A stretch of 38,490 nucleotides of DNA from a virus (IMGVR_UViG_3300032334_000080:1-38490); one strand, 5' to 3'. Numbered from the stretch's first letter, positions 4,108-17,227 are shown. Translations and numbers: made by a program. The notes: generated by a model from the letters alone, not told the origin.

Positions 4108-4437
4108 ATGGAAAACAGAAACCCACATGATGCAGTTGATTACATCTTGCTTAATGGCAAGAAGTTCGCCAAGGCGAAAGCAGAGAGGTGCTACCTTGAG
4201 GAGTATCGCAAGTCCCTCAAGGCAATATTGATGAAGCGGTCAATGGAGACCACCATTGGCGCACAGGAACGCGAGGCTTATGCCCATGAGGAGTATGTGC
4301 AGTTGCTCAAGGGTCTTAAAGAGGCTATTGAGATTGAGGAGAAACTTCGTTGGGACTTGATAGGTGCGCAGGCTCGTGTAGAGATTTGGAGAACTGAGCA
4401 AGCCAACAACCGAGCAGAGGGAAAGGCAACACTATGA
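4108..4437 (+). CDS. Conserved helical phage protein of unknown function
   Basis: AAGGAG SD; all-helical charged sequence ending '..EIWRTEQANNRAE'. Confidence 0.7.
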   Translation: MENRNPHDAVDYILLNGKKFAKAKAERCYLEEYRKSLKAILMKRSMETTIGAQEREAYAHEEYVQLLKGLKEAIEIEEKLRWDLIGAQARVEIWRTEQANNRAEGKATL

Positions 4438-4511
4438 ATGCATTTCAATGGGGAGTTGTGCTTGGGTTGGTTTTATTCGCAGCCATCTTTTATGTGGTGG
4501 AGTTCTTATGA
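4434..4511 (+). CDS. Micro membrane peptide (25 aa; not in the ORF track)
   Basis: ATGA overlaps at both ends; MNAFQWGVVLGLVLFAAIFYVVEFL forms a single TM helix. Confidence 0.45.
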   Translation: MNAFQWGVVLGLVLFAAIFYVVEFL

Positions 4512-4849
4512 CCAAAGAAGAAGAAACTGAAATTGAATTGGAGCGCATGAAACAGGCTAGAGATGCTCTCTTGATTACAAATGCAAGACTTCATGGAGAG
4601 ATTGATCGTCTAAAAAAAACACCAGAGGATGAAGAGTTTGAACGCATTGAGCGAGAGGCTCAAGGCTGGCGCAAAAGGCAAATAGCAAATGCAAAGGATG
4701 GCAAGAAGCCTTATGAAGTTGCCAAAGTCCCCAATGGTTTTTGGATTTCACCAAGACCCGGGTTTAAAGGATGGCTTGATAGTCAAGCAAATCAAGATGA
4801 ACTGCACAAGCACCTTGATGAATTTATTTGGAGAGTGCAAGACGAATGA
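4508..4849 (+). CDS. Hypothetical coiled-coil protein
   Basis: ATG at 4508 is coupled to the upstream stop; its TGA overlaps the methyltransferase ATG. Confidence 0.6.
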   Translation: MTKEEETEIELERMKQARDALLITNARLHGEIDRLKKTPEDEEFERIEREAQGWRKRQIANAKDGKKPYEVAKVPNGFWISPRPGFKGWLDSQANQDELHKHLDEFIWRVQDE

Positions 4850-6876
4850 ACTATTTATCTGTTTGTTCAGGCATAGAGGCAGCAACCTGTGCTTGGCATG
4901 ACCTAGGTTGGAATCCTGTTGGGTTCTCAGAGATTGAGAAATTCCCATCAGAAGTTTTGAAACACCATTACCCCCATGTACCTAACTTGGGAGATATGAC
5001 TAAATTTAAGGAGTGGAATCTTGGAACAAATGTCGATGTTTTCGTCGGAGGAACACCTTGCCAGTCGTTCAGTGTCGCCGGACTTAGAAAAGGATTGGAT
5101 GACCCGCGTGGGAACCTCATGCTCACCTATCTTGCAATTGCTGACCGATTTCGCCCCAAGTGGTTGGTTTGGGAGAACGTCCCCGGAGTCTTGTCATCTA
5201 ACAACGGAGAAGATTTTGGCACCTTCCTTGGAGGGTTGGGGGAACTCGGGTATGGGTTCGCATACAGAGTTCTTGACGCTCAATACTTCGGAGTGGCCCA
5301 AAGAAGGCGTCGCGTGTTCGTTATTGGACACCTTGGAGACTGGCGACCTGCCGCGGCGGTACTTTTTGAGCGCGACAGCCTGCAGAGGAATCCTCCGCCG
5401 AGCCGAAAAGCGAGAGAAAGAACTGCCGCCTTCTTTGAAAGCAGCCTTGCTCAATACCGCGCAGCAGACGTCGGAGGAACTCTCAAAGCAAGCGGAGGAG
5501 TCCTTGGAGGAGGAAGCGAAACTTTCCTCGCCCAACGAGTTGATGGATCAGGAGATGGACGAGGAGTGACTGGGCCATTGTTGGCTAGGGACTTCAAGGG
5601 TATCGACAGTTATGACCACACTAAGGTCATCCCCGTGGTCTATGAGAATCACCCTGCGGACAGTCGTGTGGAAGAGATGGGTGATGTCTGCTCAACTGTG
5701 ACATCGAGATGGGGTACAGGGGGTGGCAATGTACCCTTGGCTACTGCCGCCTACTCCATCCGTGAGGATGCCCAAGCCAACACCTTTAGTGCAACTGAGT
5801 TGGAGGTAGCGGTTGCCCTCAAGGCTTTGCAACCAAGTGTGCAGTCTCACCATGCTCAAACCTTTGTGGCTCAACCCATAGGGGTCTTGGGTAGTGAGCA
5901 TCCCAATGCCGCAGTTGCAGAGGATTTAAGCCCAACTCTGACTAGTGCCATGGGTACTGGTGGGGGTCATGTGCCTGTCTTGGACTGTTACCCCATCAGC
6001 ACACAAAATGCCTTGGGGCGCGTCAATGGGCGCGATGATTGGCCCCTAGGGCTGTTCAATGAGGGTGAGCCTGCACCTACCCTCACCAAGGCTCATGGTC
6101 ATGCCGTAGCACTATCCCCTAAGGCATACAACTTTGCACCGGGCAAGGGGGAGTTAAAGGATGACATCCATGTCACCCAAGCAGATACCACTAAAACTTT
6201 AGATGCATCAGGCAGCAACCCCGCCATGCATCAAGGGGGTGTTGGGGTTATTCATCCTAAGGCTTTCTCTTTTGATAGTGCTGAGAGCAACTCCATGAAG
6301 TCAAGCAACCCTGATAGTGGTTGCCGTGAGGTTGACCTTTCTAAGACCTTGGACACTACTCAGCCCAACCCCGCCAAAGGACAGGGCGGCATTGGCATCT
6401 TGCAACCAGTTGCCTTTAGTGCCATCGATGATGGGAGGGATGCAACTGAGGGTCTATCCCCAACTCTAAGGGTAGGGGGCAATTCTGGGGGCATGATGGG
6501 GGTCGCATTTGACACCTACAACCAAACCCTATCGGATGTGAATCAGACCATCAAAAGCCCCGTAGGAGGGGCTAATGAGTCCATAGGGACTGTTTTGTCA
6601 CCCACCTTGACTACCAACAACCCCTCAAGGTCTCCTCAAGCCTCAGAGGTCACTCAGCAAGTCAATGCCGTGTATCAAGCCTCTATGGCGGTCAGAAGAC
6701 TCACGCCAGTGGAATGTGAACGTCTTCAGGGCTTTCCTGATGGTTACACCAACATCAAGACCAACTGCCCTGATGGCCCAAGATACAAAGCCCTTGGCAA
6801 CTCTATGGCGGTGCCTGTAATGAAGTGGATTGGTCAGAGGATTGCTGACTATGAAAAGAATGTGGAGGGCAAGTGA
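4846..6876 (+). CDS. DNA (cytosine-5)-methyltransferase with a greatly expanded variable region
   Basis: Motif I SVCSGIEA, IV GGTPCQSFS, VI ENVPG, VIII QRRRRVF, IX RRLTPVECERLQGFP and X KALGNSMAVPV. About 450 aa separate VIII and IX. Confidence 0.93.
   Translation: MNYLSVCSGIEAATCAWHDLGWNPVGFSEIEKFPSEVLKHHYPHVPNLGDMTKFKEWNLGTNVDVFVGGTPCQSFSVAGLRKGLDDPRGNLMLTYLAIADRFRPKWLVWENVPGVLSSNNGEDFGTFLGGLGELGYGFAYRVLDAQYFGVAQRRRRVFVIGHLGDWRPAAAVLFERDSLQRNPPPSRKARERTAAFFESSLAQYRAADVGGTLKASGGVLGGGSETFLAQRVDGSGDGRGVTGPLLARDFKGIDSYDHTKVIPVVYENHPADSRVEEMGDVCSTVTSRWGTGGGNVPLATAAYSIREDAQANTFSATELEVAVALKALQPSVQSHHAQTFVAQPIGVLGSEHPNAAVAEDLSPTLTSAMGTGGGHVPVLDCYPISTQNALGRVNGRDDWPLGLFNEGEPAPTLTKAHGHAVALSPKAYNFAPGKGELKDDIHVTQADTTKTLDASGSNPAMHQGGVGVIHPKAFSFDSAESNSMKSSNPDSGCREVDLSKTLDTTQPNPAKGQGGIGILQPVAFSAIDDGRDATEGLSPTLRVGGNSGGMMGVAFDTYNQTLSDVNQTIKSPVGGANESIGTVLSPTLTTNNPSRSPQASEVTQQVNAVYQASMAVRRLTPVECERLQGFPDGYTNIKTNCPDGPRYKALGNSMAVPVMKWIGQRIADYEKNVEGK
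5021..5569 (+). CDS. Out-of-frame nested gene, putative methyltransferase second (beta) subunit, M.EcoHK31I-beta-like
   Basis: 182-codon +1-frame ORF with TAAGGAG (5007-5013) 7 nt before TTG. 'WGNSGM...EFLTLNTSEWP...CSLLDTLE...RYFLS' resembles the EcoHK31I beta polypeptide as I recall it. CpG density jumps exactly over this ORF. Confidence 0.75.
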   Translation: MEQMSMFSSEEHLASRSVSPDLEKDWMTRVGTSCSPILQLLTDFAPSGWFGRTSPESCHLTTEKILAPSLEGWGNSGMGSHTEFLTLNTSEWPKEGVACSLLDTLETGDLPRRYFLSATACRGILRRAEKREKELPPSLKAALLNTAQQTSEELSKQAEESLEEEAKLSSPNELMDQEMDEE

Positions 6877-7022
6877 TGGAGGAGAAAAAGAAAACTTGCC
6901 AAGTCTGCAGGCTTATACCTGCGGAGGTAAAGGGTAGAAACAGTAAGGGTGGCATCCAATGGAGATGTCAGACTTGCCATGACCTCAAGAACCGAATTGG
7001 ATTCACCAATAAAAAACAATGA
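6876..7022 (+). CDS. Small zinc-finger protein (48 aa; not in the ORF track)
   Basis: CQVC...WRCQTC; translationally coupled at both ends. Confidence 0.6.
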   Translation: MEEKKKTCQVCRLIPAEVKGRNSKGGIQWRCQTCHDLKNRIGFTNKKQ

Positions 7023-7288
7023 ACAACCAACTCACCAAGGTAGAGAGGGAGCATCTAGGCAGAGTCAAGGAACTACCTTGCTCTGTCTGTGATCAGCCAG
7101 GCCCCTCAGATGCTCACCACATAGAGCAAGGACTGCAATACACCTGTGTTGCCCTCTGTAAAGACTGCCATCAAGGGTCATTTAATGGGTGGCATGGGCA
7201 GAAAAGGATGTGGTCAATCAAGAAAATGGGGGAGTTGGATGCCCTAAATGTGACCTTGAAGAGGCTTTTTTCTAGGGGATTTCCCTAG
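7019..7288 (+). CDS. Ref/DUF968-like zinc-binding HNH-fold protein
   Basis: 'LPCSVC...DAHHI...VALCKDCHQG' motifs. Confidence 0.7.
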   Translation: MNNQLTKVEREHLGRVKELPCSVCDQPGPSDAHHIEQGLQYTCVALCKDCHQGSFNGWHGQKRMWSIKKMGELDALNVTLKRLFSRGFP

Positions 7289-7293
7289 GTTTT
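7272..7293 (+). terminator. Hairpin closing the replication/nin operon
   Basis: CTAGGG-GATTT-CCCTAG followed by GTTTT. Confidence 0.45.
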
Positions 7294-7335
7294 AGGGTTT
7301 TTTGCAATTATTTTCAACTTTTTTGCAAAAAGGGG

Positions 7336-7364
7336 TTGTAAATGGTTTAAGTTGGGCTTACACT
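7336..7364 (+). promoter_or_regulatory. Sigma70-like (early) promoter
   Basis: TTGTAA (7336-7341), 17-bp spacer, TACACT (7359-7364); A/T-tract palindrome TTTTTGCAAAAA immediately upstream. Confidence 0.65.
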
Positions 7365-7417
7365 TACCTCACCAACACAAAATCAGTTGGGTAACTTAAA
7401 CGAAAGCGAGTAAACAA

Positions 7418-7714
7418 ATGAATGCACCACTAAACATCTCAGCAGTATCAGTAGATACATTGGGTCAACTCTTGGCTCAAATTGCAGACCTCACCAAGCA
7501 AGCAGACATGATCAAGGATTCCATCAAAGACCAAGCATCTTTAGGAGGTGCAAAGGTTTATGAGGGTGCTTTGTTCAAGGCTACCTACATTGAGTCCAAT
7601 AGAAGTGTTGTTGATTACAAAACATTGTGTGCTGATCTTGGTATCACCTCTGAGCAACTTGCTCAATACACCAAAGCATCAGCAGTCTTCTCAGTCAAGG
7701 TCACATCTAAGTAA
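7418..7714 (+). CDS. Hypothetical early protein
   Basis: First ORF after the promoter; N-terminal coiled coil. Confidence 0.7.
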   Translation: MNAPLNISAVSVDTLGQLLAQIADLTKQADMIKDSIKDQASLGGAKVYEGALFKATYIESNRSVVDYKTLCADLGITSEQLAQYTKASAVFSVKVTSK

Positions 7715-7720
7715 ATCAAT

Positions 7721-7736
7721 TCCCCCTTAGGGGGGA
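7721..7736 (+). other. Intergenic stem-loop
   Basis: TCCCCC-TTAG-GGGGGA, no U-tract. Confidence 0.45.
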
Positions 7737-7765
7737 TCACTTCTAAACTCTTTAAGGAAACCAAA

Positions 7766-8266
7766 ATGAATTTCACAGTAAAAAACATCAAATCATTCAA
7801 TGGACATGAGGGCATTGGATATTCAGCAACTCTATACCTTGATGGCAAAAAGTTTGCAGAGGTATTGGATGATGCAAATGGGGGTGAGGTAGATGTCAAC
7901 TGCTTTGATTGGAAAGACCCAAACAAGGTCACCATCAACACCTACATTGATAAAGATGGTGTTCAGCACACATGGGATGTATCCCCTAACTATGCCCTCT
8001 TGCACAACTATGTGTTGACTCTGCCAAAGTGGAAAAGTTCATTCTCTGATGAGATGTATGACATGACTGTAGGTTTGTTTGTAGAGGAGTTGGTCAACAA
8101 GATTCTTGATGAGAAGAAGTTGGCTAAAGCAAAGAAGAAAGGTATTTGTTTCAAACTCAATACTGATGGCAAAAACACCTACAGAACCATCAACACACAT
8201 GACATGGAAGTAGCAGTAAATTATTTGAACAAGCAGTTTGGCATCAACACTTACCAATTCATTTAA
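7766..8266 (+). CDS. Hypothetical early protein
   Basis: TAAGGA SD; 166-aa ORF. Confidence 0.75.
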   Translation: MNFTVKNIKSFNGHEGIGYSATLYLDGKKFAEVLDDANGGEVDVNCFDWKDPNKVTINTYIDKDGVQHTWDVSPNYALLHNYVLTLPKWKSSFSDEMYDMTVGLFVEELVNKILDEKKLAKAKKKGICFKLNTDGKNTYRTINTHDMEVAVNYLNKQFGINTYQFI

Positions 8267-8279
8267 GGAGACCTCAATC

Positions 8280-8567
8280 ATGCTGACATTTGTAGATGTA
8301 TCAGAGTTCAAGCCAAGGGCTAAAAAGGCTGAGTTGACCCAAGAGCAAAAGCAAGAATGGTTCAACAAGGTCAAGCCAACTGCCAATTGGAAGTACCCAA
8401 TCAAGAAGACTTTAGTCCTTGAGAATGAGGATCAGATTGCAGAAGTCATGGACTCCATCATGTGGTTTGTAGGGGGTCTGACTGACTATGAGATTGTCAA
8501 GAGAATGCCTAAGTACATCTCTGTCAAGTTCTACAACCAAGGCTATTACAACAACATAGGAGCATAA
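8280..8567 (+). CDS. Hypothetical early protein
   Basis: TAAGGAG SD at 8264-8270 favours ATG 8280. Confidence 0.7.
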   Translation: MLTFVDVSEFKPRAKKAELTQEQKQEWFNKVKPTANWKYPIKKTLVLENEDQIAEVMDSIMWFVGGLTDYEIVKRMPKYISVKFYNQGYYNNIGA

Positions 8568-8569
8568 CC

Positions 8570-8914
8570 ATGGCAACCATCAGACTCAAAGAGGCTATCC
8601 AAGCCATTGCCCAAGGGGGCTACATCAAAGAGCCAAGCAATCACTTCTCAAGGTACACAACTGTCTTGGATAAAGATGGTGACCATGTTGGCTCAGTTAC
8701 TGCCAATTGCTACTATGAAGTCATGGACTACTTGAGTGGTCTATGGAAACATGGATGCCAACTCAAGGGAGATGACTACCTTGATAGGGTGTATCACTAC
8801 TCAACAGTCAAGGGTGACTTCAAGCACCTTGATCAGATATTGGCAAAACCATTGACAGAAAGATTGATGCAGAGTTTAGTTAGACAACAAGAGGAGGAAG
8901 AGGCTCATGTCTGA
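8570..8914 (+). CDS. Hypothetical early protein
   Basis: AGGAG SD; 114-aa ORF. Confidence 0.7.
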   Translation: MATIRLKEAIQAIAQGGYIKEPSNHFSRYTTVLDKDGDHVGSVTANCYYEVMDYLSGLWKHGCQLKGDDYLDRVYHYSTVKGDFKHLDQILAKPLTERLMQSLVRQQEEEEAHV

Positions 8915-9068
8915 AACAACCATGTCAGAGTACATCAAGGGGTTCAATAGTGGCTATGAATATGTCCTCCATGAGGTAGAGAACTTTATCAAGGCTTACC
9001 CATCAAAGGAGTTTGCCTTGCATGAGTTGTTGGCTCACCTCAAGATGGAGGGCAAGCCCCATGACTAG
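8907..9068 (+). CDS. Small hypothetical protein (53 aa, MSETTMSEY...; not in the ORF track)
   Basis: Purine-rich SD; fills the gap and overlaps both neighbours. Confidence 0.6.
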   Translation: MSETTMSEYIKGFNSGYEYVLHEVENFIKAYPSKEFALHELLAHLKMEGKPHD

Positions 9069-9222
9069 ATCACCCATCCAAGATGTTTGTATGCTCAAGA
9101 TTAGGATACTGCTCCATTCCAAAAGATTGGCTCAGTTGACTGAGAAGAGAGTTGAGAGGCAAGTGTATTTAAAGTTTCGTAAACAAATAACCGAATCGGT
9201 TTTACAAGGAGAGTTGGTATGA
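9061..9222 (+). CDS. Small basic hypothetical protein
   Basis: ATG at 9061 after GGAGG; the stop overlaps the next ATG. Confidence 0.45.
   Translation: MTRSPIQDVCMLKIRILLHSKRLAQLTEKRVERQVYLKFRKQITESVLQGELV
9189..9201. promoter_or_regulatory. Palindromic site AACCGAATCGGTT, identical to the origin iteron
   Basis: Exact match to 126-138; lies just upstream of the SD of ORF 9219. Confidence 0.5.
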
Positions 9223-12061: not shown

Positions 12062-15000
12062 ATGGGCGCACTAAACATACTGGCTAAGACGGCCAAGGCA
12101 GCAAATGAGGCGGATAAGGCTTTGCCCCTGCGTCTGGCTCGTGCCGCGCCCAAGAGTCAAGCAGAGATTGATGCTCTGGCAACCCGGGTCTCTAAGCAGA
12201 TGCTAGGTGAACACGTGTCTAGTGGCAAGCCCAAGGACACCACCAACTTGGCTGGGCGGTCTCGCAAGGAGAATGAGCGCGTCAAGGGCCTGGACTATGA
12301 GGTGACTCCGACTGGAGCCGCCAAGGAATCGGTGATCTACCAGCCCCGCAAGGGTGATGTGAATGTGGCGATCCCCGGTGACCAGACCATCTCCGACTCC
12401 ATCCTGCGCAGAGTTGGGGACATTGAGGGCATTGATTCCCACCAACAGGGTGGGGCAAGGTATGGCTTGGGCAAGATGCATGAGGAAGACCCGCTCTTTT
12501 GGGCATCTGGTGAGGGTCCGGCTCAGATGGCTCAAAACAAGTTTGGGCGCGTGGGTGACTTCTATGACCCAGAGCGTGTGGTCGGTCAGCACTTGGCTAT
12601 GGGGCCTGTCTCCAACAACTTTGCCATGCACTTTGCTGATGCCAACCTAAGGGCAATGGACTACTCCAAGATCAAGCCCAAGGATATGCAAGCCTTTGAC
12701 AGGCTGATTGCCAATGGCTATGTCAAGAAGAATCAGAAGACAGGGCAGATGGAACACATCAACTTCCCTGAGTGGCCCGGCATTGCCGACCCTGATGCAG
12801 CCCTTGAGGTGATGAAAGCCAACCCTGAGTTGCGGAAGTGGTTCAATGACCGCATGAAGACACCTAAGGTAACTCAGCCCTTGGGTCTGCCTAATGGCTT
12901 GGACATCCAATGGGCTATTACCGAGCCACAGTTGCGGAACATGGAGGTCAATCTGACTGGCTTGTCTGCAGGTGAGATGGTTCCGGGCGCCAGCCTAACC
13001 GACACCGCGGCACACAATACCTATGAGAAAGGGATTCGTGGCAAGGCTTTGGGTCATCAAGAGGTCTTGACCCCATTCACCCTGTCCTATCCAGATGCAG
13101 CACAGCACATCGCCTCAACTCAGCGCCCCCAAGACTTCACGGGGACTATCCAAAAGGTCTTCCCCCATCAGTTGGTAGATGACCAATGGCTCGATGAGGT
13201 GGCTAAGTACCGCGAGTTGATCAAGAAATACACCGGGCAGAAGTCTGGTGGTGAGATTCATATGTCCAACTTTGAGAAGCGACTCAGAGGGATCAAGGAC
13301 GAAGAGGGCAAGGATGCCATGCGTAAGATCATGGCTCTGATGGCTGGCATGATCAAGGGTCAGCCTACCGACATTGCCTCCCAGACATTCAAGGGTCGAG
13401 ACTACAAGACCAAGAAAAACCCAAGCCCAACAAGCCCATCCATGCCATCGTTTGCCTTTAAGGGCAAGCAGTATGCAGAGGGTGGGGTAACCGAGTCTGA
13501 ACCGAGTCGGTTTCGCTTGCCTAAGTTCCGCCGTGGTGGTGGATCGCAAAAGGGCAAGGACAGACCAATGTATGAGGCATTCACCCAAGGTCTTGGCCCC
13601 ATGCTCTATGGTGCAGCAAGGGGAACTGCCGCAGGACTTGCTGGCGCGCCCGGTGACATTGAGGAATTGGGTCGCATGGGTATCAACTATGTTGGTGAAA
13701 AGGCGGGCAAGCCTAACCTTGTGAATGAAGAGTCGGCTCTGCCAACCTCTGAGCGAGTGCTAAAGAAGATTCCATCCCTCAAGGATTTGGGGGCAAGCAA
13801 GGCGGCTCAACACTCTGAGGATTTCGGCAGCAACATGGGTATGTATGGCGTTTCTCAGATTGTCGCGCCCAAGGCGGGGACAACCATAGCCAAAGGTGCT
13901 AAGACCTTAGGCAAGGAACTAGGTGAGACTGCTGCACACAAGATTGCAACCGGTCAGCCCCTCATTCCCGGTCTGCCTGCATCCATGACCAATCCCCCTG
14001 TGATGAACATCATCAAGCCAGAGGGTGGCAATTGGCGAAGTGGAGAGGTAGAGAAAGCCTTGAAGAGGCTCAAGGATAGTTCTGAGATGCACAATGCAGA
14101 ACACATTCGTGGCAATCCACAAAAGGTCTATGAAGACAGAATAGACACCTTGGACAAGGTTAGCCAAAAGGCAAAGGATGCCGGGCAATGGGATGATGCC
14201 ATGGAGCGGCAATATGCTGGACTTAGGCAGAATGCCCTCAACAACCTTGCCTTGGATAAGTGGGTTGACTCCAATCTCACCAACTATGTCAAAAAACAAA
14301 TGGGGTCGGAGAAAGACCCTGTCCGCCTATTGGCTGATGAGGGGGTTACTCACTATGCCAATGAGGGAGCAATGCGAGAGGCATTGGATTCAAGTTATCA
14401 GCAAAGCCATAATGCAAGGCTTTTGCGTGAGAGATATGGGATGCCATCCAACCCTATAGCCCAAACCAACATGGGCAAGACTTGGGAACAAGGTGTTGAT
14501 GATCTGCTTGGGCATGACATCAGCAAGACATACATTACAGACAAGCGCATCAAAGATAACCCATGGATGGCAAACATACCCAAGAACACCCCGTTCTATG
14601 GCATGGATGACTACCATACAAGGCAATTTGGCTTTGACCATATCCTTGATGTCTTGAAAGAAGACTTGGCATCTGGTCGCATCCGACCCGACCAACTCAA
14701 CAAGGTCTCAATGAAGCAGGCTGTTGAGCGCACCCATCAGTACAACTTGGATAAAGCCAAGGAGATGGAGAATGCCGTTATCAAGCAGCAAGAGGGTTTC
14801 CCTATCCACAAGGAATATCCAGAAGGCTATCGATGGCTTGAACTGTCTTTGCCCCCAGATGATATGTTGCCCAAGGGATACAAGATCATCAAGAATCCAG
14901 ATGTTGTTACCCCCAAAGATGGTGACCCATATCTGTTGCTCAATGACCAAGGTACTCCAATAGCCTTTGGTGATTCACCCGCAGAAATCATGCGAGGCAT

Positions 15001-17227
15001 CAGCCCAGACATGAAGCCGGGTTATCAGAAACTGAAAGATGCCCTTGACTATGAGGGCAGCACCATGGGTCATTGCGTAGGCTCATACTGTGATGAAGTA
15101 TCTGGTGGTGGCACTAAGATTTATTCCCTCAGAGACAAAAAGGGTGAGCCTCATGTAACTGTAGAAGTTCAGCCCGGACATGGCGATCAATCAATGGAAG
15201 CGGTAGAAGAGCGCTATAGACAAGCACGTGCTGCTGATCCAGTAAACACCCCTAGAAATTTTAATGACTGGGCTGAAGCCAATGACATTGCATTTGAGGC
15301 AGATACTTTCCGTCACCCTAGCATCATGCAAATCAAGGGAAAGCAAAACCGCGCCCCTAAGGATGAGTATTTACCCTATGTCCAAGACTTTGTAAAAAAC
15401 AATAATTGGGCAGTAATTGGTGACTTGAAAAATACGGGATTAAAGTCTATCAATGATGCTTTTCCAAATTATGAAGACCGCAAATTTTTTAGTAAGGCTA
15501 ACCCAAATACCTACTATCTAACCCAAGCAGAAATTGATGCTCACAACAAGGAGGTCAATGAGGCACTTCTTAATGAGTTTTCCAAGCACCGTCTCAAGCC
15601 AGACCCTGAGTCAAAGAACACCCTAGGCCGCAATGACTTGATGACCATCAGAGAATTGGCTGAGTTGGAGTTTCCCGGTGATTTGCAAAAGCAAGCCAAC
15701 ATGATCCGTGGTGCAATGCAAGGCACTACTGAGCCGGGTGCTTATAGTGGCTCAATCTTCCCTCCCCTTGAGGAGAAAAAGGGCGGAGCAATCTCTGTCC
15801 CCAAGTTCACCCTCAAGATGGGTGCGGGCGGCTTGCTCAAGGGCGCGATCAAAGGTGCAAAAGCAATTAAAAAGGCTGAGGCTCCAAGCATCATCATCCC
15901 TAGTGACATCAGTAAAGTCAAAGAGGCTATCCGCCAAAGCAAGGGTGACTTTGGTGCAAGGCGAGTAGAGCGTGCTGCTGATGAGATTCCTAACCTTGAA
16001 AAAATGTACAAAGAAAAGGCTTTGCAAGATGCCTTTGGTGGTGACAATGCTAAAGCCATGATGACCATGAACCCTGCGGACTTTGAAAAGTACGCCACTC
16101 CAGTAATTGAAAGAACAAGACATTGGGGCAGTTTGGGTGCAAGTGACCCTGACAAAATCAATTTGCCTACAGAAGACTACATAAAGTATCTAAGGACTGT
16201 TGGGCCTTTTGATGATGTTCCATTTTTAGAAATCAACAAGCAAGAAGAGGGTTTACCCCTAGTCCCATTTATTTCTGGGCATGAGGGTCGCCACCGCAAT
16301 AGAACCTTGGCAAATAAGGGTGAGAACACAGGGCTTGTCCAACTGTTGCCACGTGCTGAGTTGCGTGAACCTTTCCCACGTCGCTCTCAAGAGGAGTACA
16401 TTGAGGCTTTGAAGAAAGAACTAGAGATGACCAATAATGTGGTTGAGCCTCAAGTTTATTTTTCGCGGGATGCCTTTGCTCACCCTCCACAAATTAGACG
16501 CCCTGCAATTAAGTTGCCAGACATTTATGCCAAAGGCGGTATAGCCTTGGGTGCGGGCGGTTTACTCAAAAATGCCCTCAAAGGAATCAAAGGCACACAA
16601 GAGATATTGCCCGCGGTTGAGCGAGAGGCTAACAAAGCCAAGTACCTCAAGGACAGTAAGGTGCAAACCCAAGCCTATCATGGCCCCGGCAGATTCAATG
16701 GGGTGACCGACATTGACAAGTTCAGAACCATTGAGAATGACACAGGTGGGGCCTGGTTTGCATCCAACCCTGACTATGCTACCCAATTTGGGGACAACTA
16801 TGTGATGCCTGTCCACCTCAACATGAAAAACCCTGTGGACTTGACCAAGTTTGGCAACAAGTCATTGACTGTGAACCAATGGAAGAAAGCCATGCAAAAG
16901 GCTGGGGTAGATACCTCAGAGATGCAGATTAAACCCGCGGGTGTACTAGGTGGGGCGAACAAAAAAGGTGAGCCTAACTATGACCTGTGGGAATTGATGT
17001 GGCGCAATGATGATGGACAGAACAACATCCCTGAGACCCTTATGAAACAAGGGTACGATGGAATCCTAGCGCCAGCAGAGTACGATTCAAAGACTCCAAA
17101 CTATGTTGTCTTTGAGCCAACCCAAGTTAAATCAGCCCTTGGCAATCGAGGTACTTACGATCCGAAAGACCCCAACATCAGCAAAGCCAGAGGCGGCTTG
17201 ACTTCACTAAGGAAACGATATGCCTGA
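12062..17227 (+). CDS. Large polyvalent (probably virion-packaged) protein with PcfJ-like, ParB-like and ADP-ribosyltransferase-like domains
   Basis: PcfJ-like 'EGSTMGHCVGSY...IYSLRD...PHVTVEV...QIKGKQN'; ParB-like 'GHEGRHR'; ART-PolyVal-like 'YHG...WFAS.P.YA..F...VMPVHL.MKNP...GYDGI...YVVFEPTQVKS'. Confidence 0.75.
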   Translation: MGALNILAKTAKAANEADKALPLRLARAAPKSQAEIDALATRVSKQMLGEHVSSGKPKDTTNLAGRSRKENERVKGLDYEVTPTGAAKESVIYQPRKGDVNVAIPGDQTISDSILRRVGDIEGIDSHQQGGARYGLGKMHEEDPLFWASGEGPAQMAQNKFGRVGDFYDPERVVGQHLAMGPVSNNFAMHFADANLRAMDYSKIKPKDMQAFDRLIANGYVKKNQKTGQMEHINFPEWPGIADPDAALEVMKANPELRKWFNDRMKTPKVTQPLGLPNGLDIQWAITEPQLRNMEVNLTGLSAGEMVPGASLTDTAAHNTYEKGIRGKALGHQEVLTPFTLSYPDAAQHIASTQRPQDFTGTIQKVFPHQLVDDQWLDEVAKYRELIKKYTGQKSGGEIHMSNFEKRLRGIKDEEGKDAMRKIMALMAGMIKGQPTDIASQTFKGRDYKTKKNPSPTSPSMPSFAFKGKQYAEGGVTESEPSRFRLPKFRRGGGSQKGKDRPMYEAFTQGLGPMLYGAARGTAAGLAGAPGDIEELGRMGINYVGEKAGKPNLVNEESALPTSERVLKKIPSLKDLGASKAAQHSEDFGSNMGMYGVSQIVAPKAGTTIAKGAKTLGKELGETAAHKIATGQPLIPGLPASMTNPPVMNIIKPEGGNWRSGEVEKALKRLKDSSEMHNAEHIRGNPQKVYEDRIDTLDKVSQKAKDAGQWDDAMERQYAGLRQNALNNLALDKWVDSNLTNYVKKQMGSEKDPVRLLADEGVTHYANEGAMREALDSSYQQSHNARLLRERYGMPSNPIAQTNMGKTWEQGVDDLLGHDISKTYITDKRIKDNPWMANIPKNTPFYGMDDYHTRQFGFDHILDVLKEDLASGRIRPDQLNKVSMKQAVERTHQYNLDKAKEMENAVIKQQEGFPIHKEYPEGYRWLELSLPPDDMLPKGYKIIKNPDVVTPKDGDPYLLLNDQGTPIAFGDSPAEIMRGISPDMKPGYQKLKDALDYEGSTMGHCVGSYCDEVSGGGTKIYSLRDKKGEPHVTVEVQPGHGDQSMEAVEERYRQARAADPVNTPRNFNDWAEANDIAFEADTFRHPSIMQIKGKQNRAPKDEYLPYVQDFVKNNNWAVIGDLKNTGLKSINDAFPNYEDRKFFSKANPNTYYLTQAEIDAHNKEVNEALLNEFSKHRLKPDPESKNTLGRNDLMTIRELAELEFPGDLQKQANMIRGAMQGTTEPGAYSGSIFPPLEEKKGGAISVPKFTLKMGAGGLLKGAIKGAKAIKKAEAPSIIIPSDISKVKEAIRQSKGDFGARRVERAADEIPNLEKMYKEKALQDAFGGDNAKAMMTMNPADFEKYATPVIERTRHWGSLGASDPDKINLPTEDYIKYLRTVGPFDDVPFLEINKQEEGLPLVPFISGHEGRHRNRTLANKGENTGLVQLLPRAELREPFPRRSQEEYIEALKKELEMTNNVVEPQVYFSRDAFAHPPQIRRPAIKLPDIYAKGGIALGAGGLLKNALKGIKGTQEILPAVEREANKAKYLKDSKVQTQAYHGPGRFNGVTDIDKFRTIENDTGGAWFASNPDYATQFGDNYVMPVHLNMKNPVDLTKFGNKSLTVNQWKKAMQKAGVDTSEMQIKPAGVLGGANKKGEPNYDLWELMWRNDDGQNNIPETLMKQGYDGILAPAEYDSKTPNYVVFEPTQVKSALGNRGTYDPKDPNISKARGGLTSLRKRYA

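Follow-up and report, generated by a model that had tools for sequence, protein, structure and literature searches.

A gene nested in the +1 frame of a phage cytosine-5 methyltransferase gene probably encodes the second, linker-bearing chain of a two-chain enzyme

The window analyzed here, that is, the whole stretch of 38,490 nucleotides (IMGVR_UViG_3300032334_000080, positions 1-38490), is a tailed-phage stretch in which primase, helicase and RusA genes are followed by a methyltransferase gene and then by terminase, portal, head and tail-fibre genes, and near-identical DNA is present in freshwater, river and wastewater metagenomes. The methyltransferase gene, here called alpha, occupies positions 4846-6876 of the + strand and encodes a C5 DNA cytosine methyltransferase of 676 aa. 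Its product matched PF00145 in a family profile search (E 7.6e-57), was assigned to phrog_116 in a PHROGs search, and resembles M.HhaI and M.HaeIII in both sequence and fold. The start was placed at ATG 4846, which overlaps the TGA of the upstream ORF (4448-4849); a start at TTG 4828 was considered and dropped, given that the homologues start at this ATG and given the stop-start overlap. Motifs I, IV (PC), VI (ENV), VIII, IX and X follow each other in order in the alpha frame, under the usual numbering of C5 methyltransferase motifs. Motif IV (GTPCQSFS, 5050-5073, +) is intact and holds the catalytic Cys72; motif VIII (QRRRRVF, 5299-5319, +) is not followed by an L-x-D/E-x-L-E..Y-L linker; and motifs IX (RRLTPVECERLQGFP, residues 617-631, 6694-6738, +) and X (YKALGNSM, 6784-6807, +) lie near the C-terminus. 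By these motifs alpha is a C5 methyltransferase of the PF00145 type, cytosine methylation itself being predicted.

No restriction enzyme was found among the 36 window ORFs compared with PHROGs, many of which are without a family, and no sigma-70-like promoter was found within 4400-7500. In the window, AGCT is absent (0 against 249 expected, both strands), GGWCC occurs once and CCWGG 10 times, GGCC and GATC reach approximately one third and one half of expectation, respectively, and several 6-mer palindromes are missing; these avoided restriction-like words may represent host sites that the methyltransferase does not cover. The observed/expected ratio of CG is 0.58 for the whole window, and three consecutive 500-nt bins over a run of small genes (7501-9000) hold no CG at all. 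A further observation is a 1,721-aa ORF of no assigned function (12062-17227), with weak PHROG matches, between the terminase large subunit and the portal.

Wholly inside alpha, on the same strand and in its +1 frame, lies an ORF of 182 aa with a TTG start (5021-5569), here called beta. A preliminary description of this DNA had reported a 182-codon alternate-frame ORF with a Shine-Dalgarno (SD) sequence of its own, and both were found: the SD-like TAAGGAG (5007-5013, +), within alpha codons F54-K55-E56, stands 7 nt upstream of TTG 5021. The conserved part of beta covers approximately residues 1-150. It includes WGNSGMG (residues 73-79, 5237-5257, +), which matches W37-M42 of the beta subunit of M.EcoHK31I and is predicted to run along alpha strand 137-144; SLLDTLETGDLPRRYFLS (residues 100-117, 5318-5371, +), the counterpart of the linker that follows motif VIII within single-chain enzymes; and a conserved helix pair, ACRGILRRAEKREKELPPSL (residues 120-139, 5378-5437, +). 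The acidic tail (residues 151-182) is not conserved; at 5471-5566 it results from reading the glycine-rich first module of alpha in the +1 frame, it varies in length among relatives, and it is probably a by-product. Beta has no family in Pfam or NCBIfam, its matches in PHROGs are weak (E 1.3e-6 and 0.067), those in the ESM Atlas are to 'hypothetical protein' clusters only, and the beta profile found no match among PDB sequences (best E 0.54).

Random synonymous recoding of alpha left the +1 frame open in 10 of 20,000 trials, and two junction-aware recoding models did so in 3 and 7 of 20,000; the open +1 frame in the window exceeds chance. The composition of the ORF had also been pointed out, with about 40 CG dinucleotides by manual count, and we counted 41 inside it, 0 in 4846-5020 (175 nt) and 28 in 5570-6876. 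The proposal that this contrast is a signal of dual coding held under a null that keeps the genome's C|G codon-junction avoidance (means of 17.6 and 23.0; 0 of 20,000 reach 41) and did not hold under independent codon sampling of alpha, in which 41 is ordinary (mean 38.2; at least 41 in 6,177 of 20,000). In homologues the contrast is small (8.07 vs 6.76 CG per 100 nt). Because the outcome varies with the null, the CG excess is used here as supporting evidence only.

To follow the frame across relatives, an alpha query was used, which confirmed 598 viral stretches, and the best 79 loci were kept. The +1 frame is open for at least 148 codons over the same span in all 79 of these best loci and in the window, and the +2 frame has 4-11 stops; stops scattered through this frame in homologous genes, which the preliminary description had named as a result that would refute it, were not seen in these loci. 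A start codon lies at Cys-16 to Cys-8 in 80/80 loci, being TTG, ATG or GTG depending on the locus, with an SD match of at least 5 nt ahead of a start codon in 75 of the 80 and a stop directly before an ATG at Cys-12 in 15 of the loci. Entropy and stops were analyzed in 159 IMG/VR loci, reduced to 118 with full alpha and to 74 after 90% dereplication. At conserved four-fold sites, third-position entropy was 0.97 bits across the 30 sites of the overlap and 0.59 bits across the 14 sites of the beta core, compared with 1.82 bits before the overlap (9 sites) and 1.84 bits in motifs IX-X (15 sites) by the same measure; the check on synonymous-site conservation in the alpha frame accordingly came out as a fall from 1.8 to 0.6-1.0 bits. 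In the 74 dereplicated genes, +1 stops numbered 8 in 8,582 overlap codons, 152 in 3,552 codons before and 157 in 4,088 codons after; all eight overlap stops, from 5 loci, lie at or before Cys+26, upstream of P1- and EcoHK31I-type beta starts. Compared with the window, four near relatives show changes at 34 of 1,800 aligned nt in the core overlap, at 49/559 before it, at 47/480 in motifs IX-X and at 372/2,767 after it, and 17 of the 34 core differences are silent in beta and 15 in alpha; since these relatives share differences, their counts are not independent. The same holds for the loci in general, which are best hits, related to each other and drawn in overlapping sets. Moreover, one of the search peptides used, DMTKFKEW, spans the SD. 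The choice of loci and this peptide temper the selection signal but do not remove it.

These patterns could also be read as those of an untranslated +1 frame, a by-product of alpha conservation, of codon bias or of an RNA or DNA element. Beta residues 1-70 indeed overlap alpha's most conserved motifs and are missing from P1-, CP-T1-, Bcep22- and EcoHK31I-type betas, and the CG excess is gone under one null. Nevertheless, silent alpha positions are fixed where beta requires them, many substitutions leave beta unaltered, the start codon is swapped for another type at the same position, and the frame is kept out to Firmicute and mycobacterial phages; in addition, the homologous frame of EcoHK31I encodes a required subunit, according to the passages of the EcoHK31I literature that describe it. 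We regard a mere by-product as very unlikely and the nested gene, judging from these sequence comparisons, as very probably real; the earlier suggestion of a nested gene under selection agrees with the open frame, the fixed silent alpha positions and the start swaps behind an SD.

Downstream of the conserved part of beta, alpha holds a variable region (residues ~196-612, 5431-6681, +) with approximately 11 TRD-like modules carrying a T-L-type motif, which was modelled with low confidence. The multi-TRD array proposed earlier is well matched by the behavior of these modules, which are gained and lost in frame, and by short similarity to MtbP and H2I. Near relatives are without whole modules, in frame, and a 138-nt (46-aa) module (6118-6255, +), set between direct repeats CCTAAGGC (6118-6125 and 6256-6263), is skipped in close relatives (3 of 4 runs), with one clean joint and two with unknown letters between. 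Across 117 homologues the region spans 34-523 aa, a given module is shared by 0 to 27 of them, 64 share none, and the combinations differ. When modules were compared with known variable regions, no more than 30 of 1,000 shuffles did as well in 7 of 44 tests. The similarity is short, and MtbP was the best match: module 363 resembles MtbP 310-323 (0/1,000 shuffles) and module 411 resembles MtbP 347-373 (5/1,000). SPbeta MtbP and M.H2I are multispecific methyltransferases of Bacillus phages, and both share with window alpha a T-L-type module array between motifs VIII and IX, although with fewer modules. We infer that the modules act as TRDs and that the enzyme is multispecific; TRD arrays are mentioned in PMC12707154.

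The part played by beta may be approached through enzymes that do without it. In the single-chain SPbeta MtbP, M.H2I and Klebsiella phage Matisse gp123 the +1 frame is closed (12 stops in MtbP, 9 in M.H2I), and L/V-x-D/E-I-L-E..Y-x-L/I follows motif VIII in all three (3/3). Among 118 relatives of the window gene, the linker pattern (L-x-D-x-L-E..Y-L) occurs in none of the alphas and in 97 of the +1 frames at motif VIII, having missed the other 21. Window beta itself resembles the single-chain linkers weakly (profile at most 2.6 bits; pairwise 71 of 500 shuffles for H2I and 362 for MtbP), and the best beta-profile hit in all three single-chain enzymes falls in the linker segment. Betas of Firmicute phages match both window beta (0/500 shuffles each) and the linkers of MtbP and H2I (0-1/500), with no match to the Matisse linker (232-350 of 500). 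As the direct match of window beta is non-significant, the link from beta to the single-chain linker goes via these intermediates. In the window the linker overlaps motif VIII, a position that a linker lying downstream would not reach by simple frameshifting. Overall, the sequences suggest that beta likely supplies the structural linker that one-chain enzymes hold in their own chain.

The two-chain complex anticipated in the preliminary description is also predicted: the model of alpha, beta and SAH scored 0.84, against 0.00 for the best of 3 controls. Among 157 solved complexes, 116 attained the mark used, as did 2 of 215 mismatched pairs; the calibration is rough (own alignments, SAH riding along). 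Runs agreed in at least 63% of contacts, with a partner pLDDT of at least 72, and the pass may be owed partly to likeness with solved single-chain C5 methyltransferases. In the complex model beta touches the edge of the catalytic sheet and motif IX. The most confident contacts join alpha 137-142 to beta 75-79 and alpha 142-144 to beta 91-92, and link beta L105 to alpha E623 of motif IX. A role of beta as a scaffold for whichever TRD is docked, which had been suggested as well, finds no support, because the interface holds just two residues of the module array, alpha 472 and 495, and almost no confident contact between beta and the array.

A large predicted interface suits an obligatory subunit as well as a regulator, that is, an inhibitor, an activator or a timing switch of a self-sufficient alpha. 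Alpha has all ten motifs, motif IX included, and because it carries motif IX it would not need beta on the published grounds; modelled without beta, moreover, its catalytic domain folds mostly with high confidence, the module array being not resolved. A self-sufficient alpha is harder to reconcile with the lack of a single-chain linker in every alpha compared (0/118), or with the weak motif IX-X region of the alpha-only model (block pLDDT 47-70 over residues 611-660). In EcoHK31I, the same N-terminal beta core is needed for both association and activity, according to the truncation passages of PMC2836561. A purely regulatory beta is unlikely in our view, and we consider it probable, on the strength of sequence comparison and modelling, that the nested gene encodes the second, obligatory linker chain of a two-chain phage DNA cytosine-5 methyltransferase.

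As an obligatory chain, beta, of about 20 kDa, would be translated from the alpha mRNA, starting at its own TTG behind its own SD, and would complete the fold, providing the post-motif-VIII linker and an extra strand along the catalytic sheet. Residues W73-G79 would pair with alpha 137-144, and L101-L105 would pack on motif IX and tie the small domain to the catalytic domain; alpha without beta would be weak or inactive. The complex would then methylate several recognition sites via its approximately 11 modules, and methylation would shield the phage DNA from host restriction. That beta is kept where alpha has its own motif IX suggests a more basic job for it, as strand and linker, and such a role fits the published EcoHK31I truncation data.

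The beta family has 1,300 relatives of similar length and comprises 5,201 clusters at 50% identity. A match to beta is present in 157 of the 50,697 phage records. Plasmid records with a match number 535; Escherichia contributes 449, mostly under genes of the Dam family. All 80 prokaryote-genome loci retrieved with the beta profile also encode alpha, 79 with PCQ. The nested ORF is present, unannotated, in JL22 dmt, Omega gp127, CP-T1 gp12 and Bcep22 gp25, and, likewise unannotated, in genes of Lactococcus, Clostridium and Streptococcus phages. P1 dmt (8714-9202 in our locus L174; 66713-67201 in NC_005856) contains an unannotated 162-aa ORF that encodes the beta core in the +1 frame. No nested gene is listed in RefSeq NC_005856, where the C5 activity of Dmt is given as 'perhaps'. 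The P1 reference alpha reads VLVWGTPCQ where relatives read VLVGGTPCQ. Omega gp127/gp128 (L081, 1694-2998) is in three pieces: an alpha that ends behind its catalytic domain, the beta nested in it, and a next gene with the modules and motifs IX-X.

Other arrangements were met in the same searches. Two loci (L149 and L153), possibly of a further subtype, have a beta-like ORF that stops at approximately profile position 105, right past motif VIII, and a second +1-frame ORF that holds the tail. The record of Paenibacillus phage BN12 annotates a nested methyltransferase gene, of a different type, and the nested ORFs of BN12 and mycobacteriophage SmellyB were tried as members of the beta family and dropped, since they resemble window beta only weakly (BN12, 12.1 bits and 33/500 shuffles; SmellyB, 9.1 bits and 285/500). 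In BN12 (L171, 1385-2089) and SmellyB (L170, 1490-2116) the partner, nested or overlapping, is of another kind and has P-T-P repeats; by eye the BN12 partner ends in a IX-like segment and the SmellyB partner in IX- and X-like segments, which the tail profile did not confirm.

Longer hits of the beta family raise the question of whether the +1 frame is read by programmed frameshifting, giving one hybrid chain of beta core, modules and motifs IX and X. Such beta fusions, which lack catalytic motifs but have IX and X as judged by pattern, make up 74 of the 121 longer hits examined, and some of these proteins occur on 13-19 contigs. At the DNA level, however, the fusion layout was found in 0/163 and 2/240 loci, one of the two looking like a frameshifted copy, and several fusion proteins are plain alpha/beta chimeras; furthermore, beta starts at a codon of its own behind an SD of its own and ends at a stop that varies, and a shift from alpha to beta would bypass motif VIII. 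Frameshifting is, in our judgement, extremely unlikely, the separately initiated second chain being the preferred reading. Beta-tail fusions as a second common architecture were dropped on the same locus counts, and many 'tail separate' loci look like frameshifts or assembly gaps. A model of one beta-IX-X fusion protein (P0118, pLDDT 65) gave generic helix-pair matches, with a best Z of 5.4.

Taking the family as a whole, we tentatively suggest that there could be a very large and for the most part unannotated class of phage C5 methyltransferases, with P1 Dmt among them, that is switched on only by a hidden in-gene linker subunit. In the full-text literature searched, which covers few subscription journals, the form with motif IX on alpha, its spread in phages and the nested gene in P1 dmt were undescribed. 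If this reading is true, two-chain enzymes would stand behind thousands of phage and prophage methyltransferase annotations that show a single gene, and recoded or codon-optimised synthetic copies would be inactive for want of beta. With the linker in a second frame, the variable region would no longer be tied to the catalytic core, and the modules and motifs IX/X would be free to shuffle, whether placed in one frame, in the other or in a third gene. Translational control would be possible at the weak internal start, and the 1995 reading of the EcoHK31I subunit as a 'motif IX subunit' would be a special case. The question of cytosine methylation by P1 Dmt becomes directly testable in a laboratory phage, and alpha and beta would offer a clean natural case of interacting chains that share identical bases.

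Among known systems, MtbP and M.H2I are single chains with the linker in-chain, whereas in the window it is in the +1 frame. P1 Dmt, whose N-terminal domain is the C5 domain, shares with the window enzyme motifs IX and X on alpha and the beta core in its 162-aa +1-frame ORF; it differs in being fused to a Dam domain and in a later beta start. M.AquI is encoded by two genes that are not known to be nested and, like the predicted window enzyme, consists of two polypeptides. As described in the relevant section of PMC3404938, M.AquI is a natural two-polypeptide C5 methyltransferase whose small subunit holds the distal variable region, motif IX and motif X; in contrast, alpha carries all of these in the window, as it does in 149/163 and 219/240 loci.

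The nearest counterpart is M.EcoHK31I of E. coli HK31, an alpha/beta enzyme recognizing YGGCCR and reported by Lee, Kam and Shaw in 1995, as cited in PMC2836561 and PMC3404938. In the passages of PMC2836561 devoted to it, beta is encoded entirely in another frame of the alpha gene, is required, and is described as having motif IX only; protection and activity fall from the truncation starting at W37, and activity drops sharply between delta69 and delta70. In-frame ATGs further downstream in the beta frame are described as having rescued EcoHK31I. These positions correspond to W73 and L105 of window beta, both invariant in 63 aligned betas. As a stand-in for the EcoHK31I sequence we used an E. 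coli locus (L164), found with a primer given in PMC2836561 that matched 81 of 5,426 E. coli genomes; no relevant plasmid was found with it. In this locus alpha has 309 aa and the +1-frame beta 176 aa, and a gene for a NotI-family nuclease is also present; the locus is a close allele of EcoHK31I, one codon off one primer. Homology of the 182-aa product to EcoHK31I beta, which had been suspected from the W.NSGM..NT.E.P..C.L...LE pattern, was established with this gene: the pattern is there, the window beta-family profile scores 54 bits (E 1e-18), and the pairwise alignment is identical at 31/96 positions (E 3e-9; 0/500 shuffles).

Both betas lie in alpha's +1 frame, in the same register, and share the core W-x-N-S-G-M, N-T-x-E-x-P, C-x-L-x-x-x-L-E-T, F-L and R-A-x-x-R-x-x-x-L-P. 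EcoHK31I beta, however, starts at Cys+25 and ends with motif IX, whereas window beta starts at Cys-13 and is without it; EcoHK31I alpha has only motif X of the two, and the window's motif IX (alpha 617-631) aligns with the C-terminus of EcoHK31I beta. EcoHK31I also has a short variable region where window alpha has approximately 11 modules, and it stands beside a NotI-family restriction gene whereas the window enzyme appears to be an orphan phage enzyme. An enzyme of the EcoHK31I alpha/beta type had been proposed, and this stands as regards the nested, homologous beta but not as regards motif IX; because that motif sits on alpha, the window enzyme is a variant rather than a strict EcoHK31I member. 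In the passages of the literature surveyed, only M.AquI and M.EcoHK31I are given as two-polypeptide C5 methyltransferases, and EcoHK31I beta is credited with motif IX alone. The design has been known since 1995, and what sets the window enzyme apart, as read from the sequence, is a nested beta alongside motif IX on alpha.
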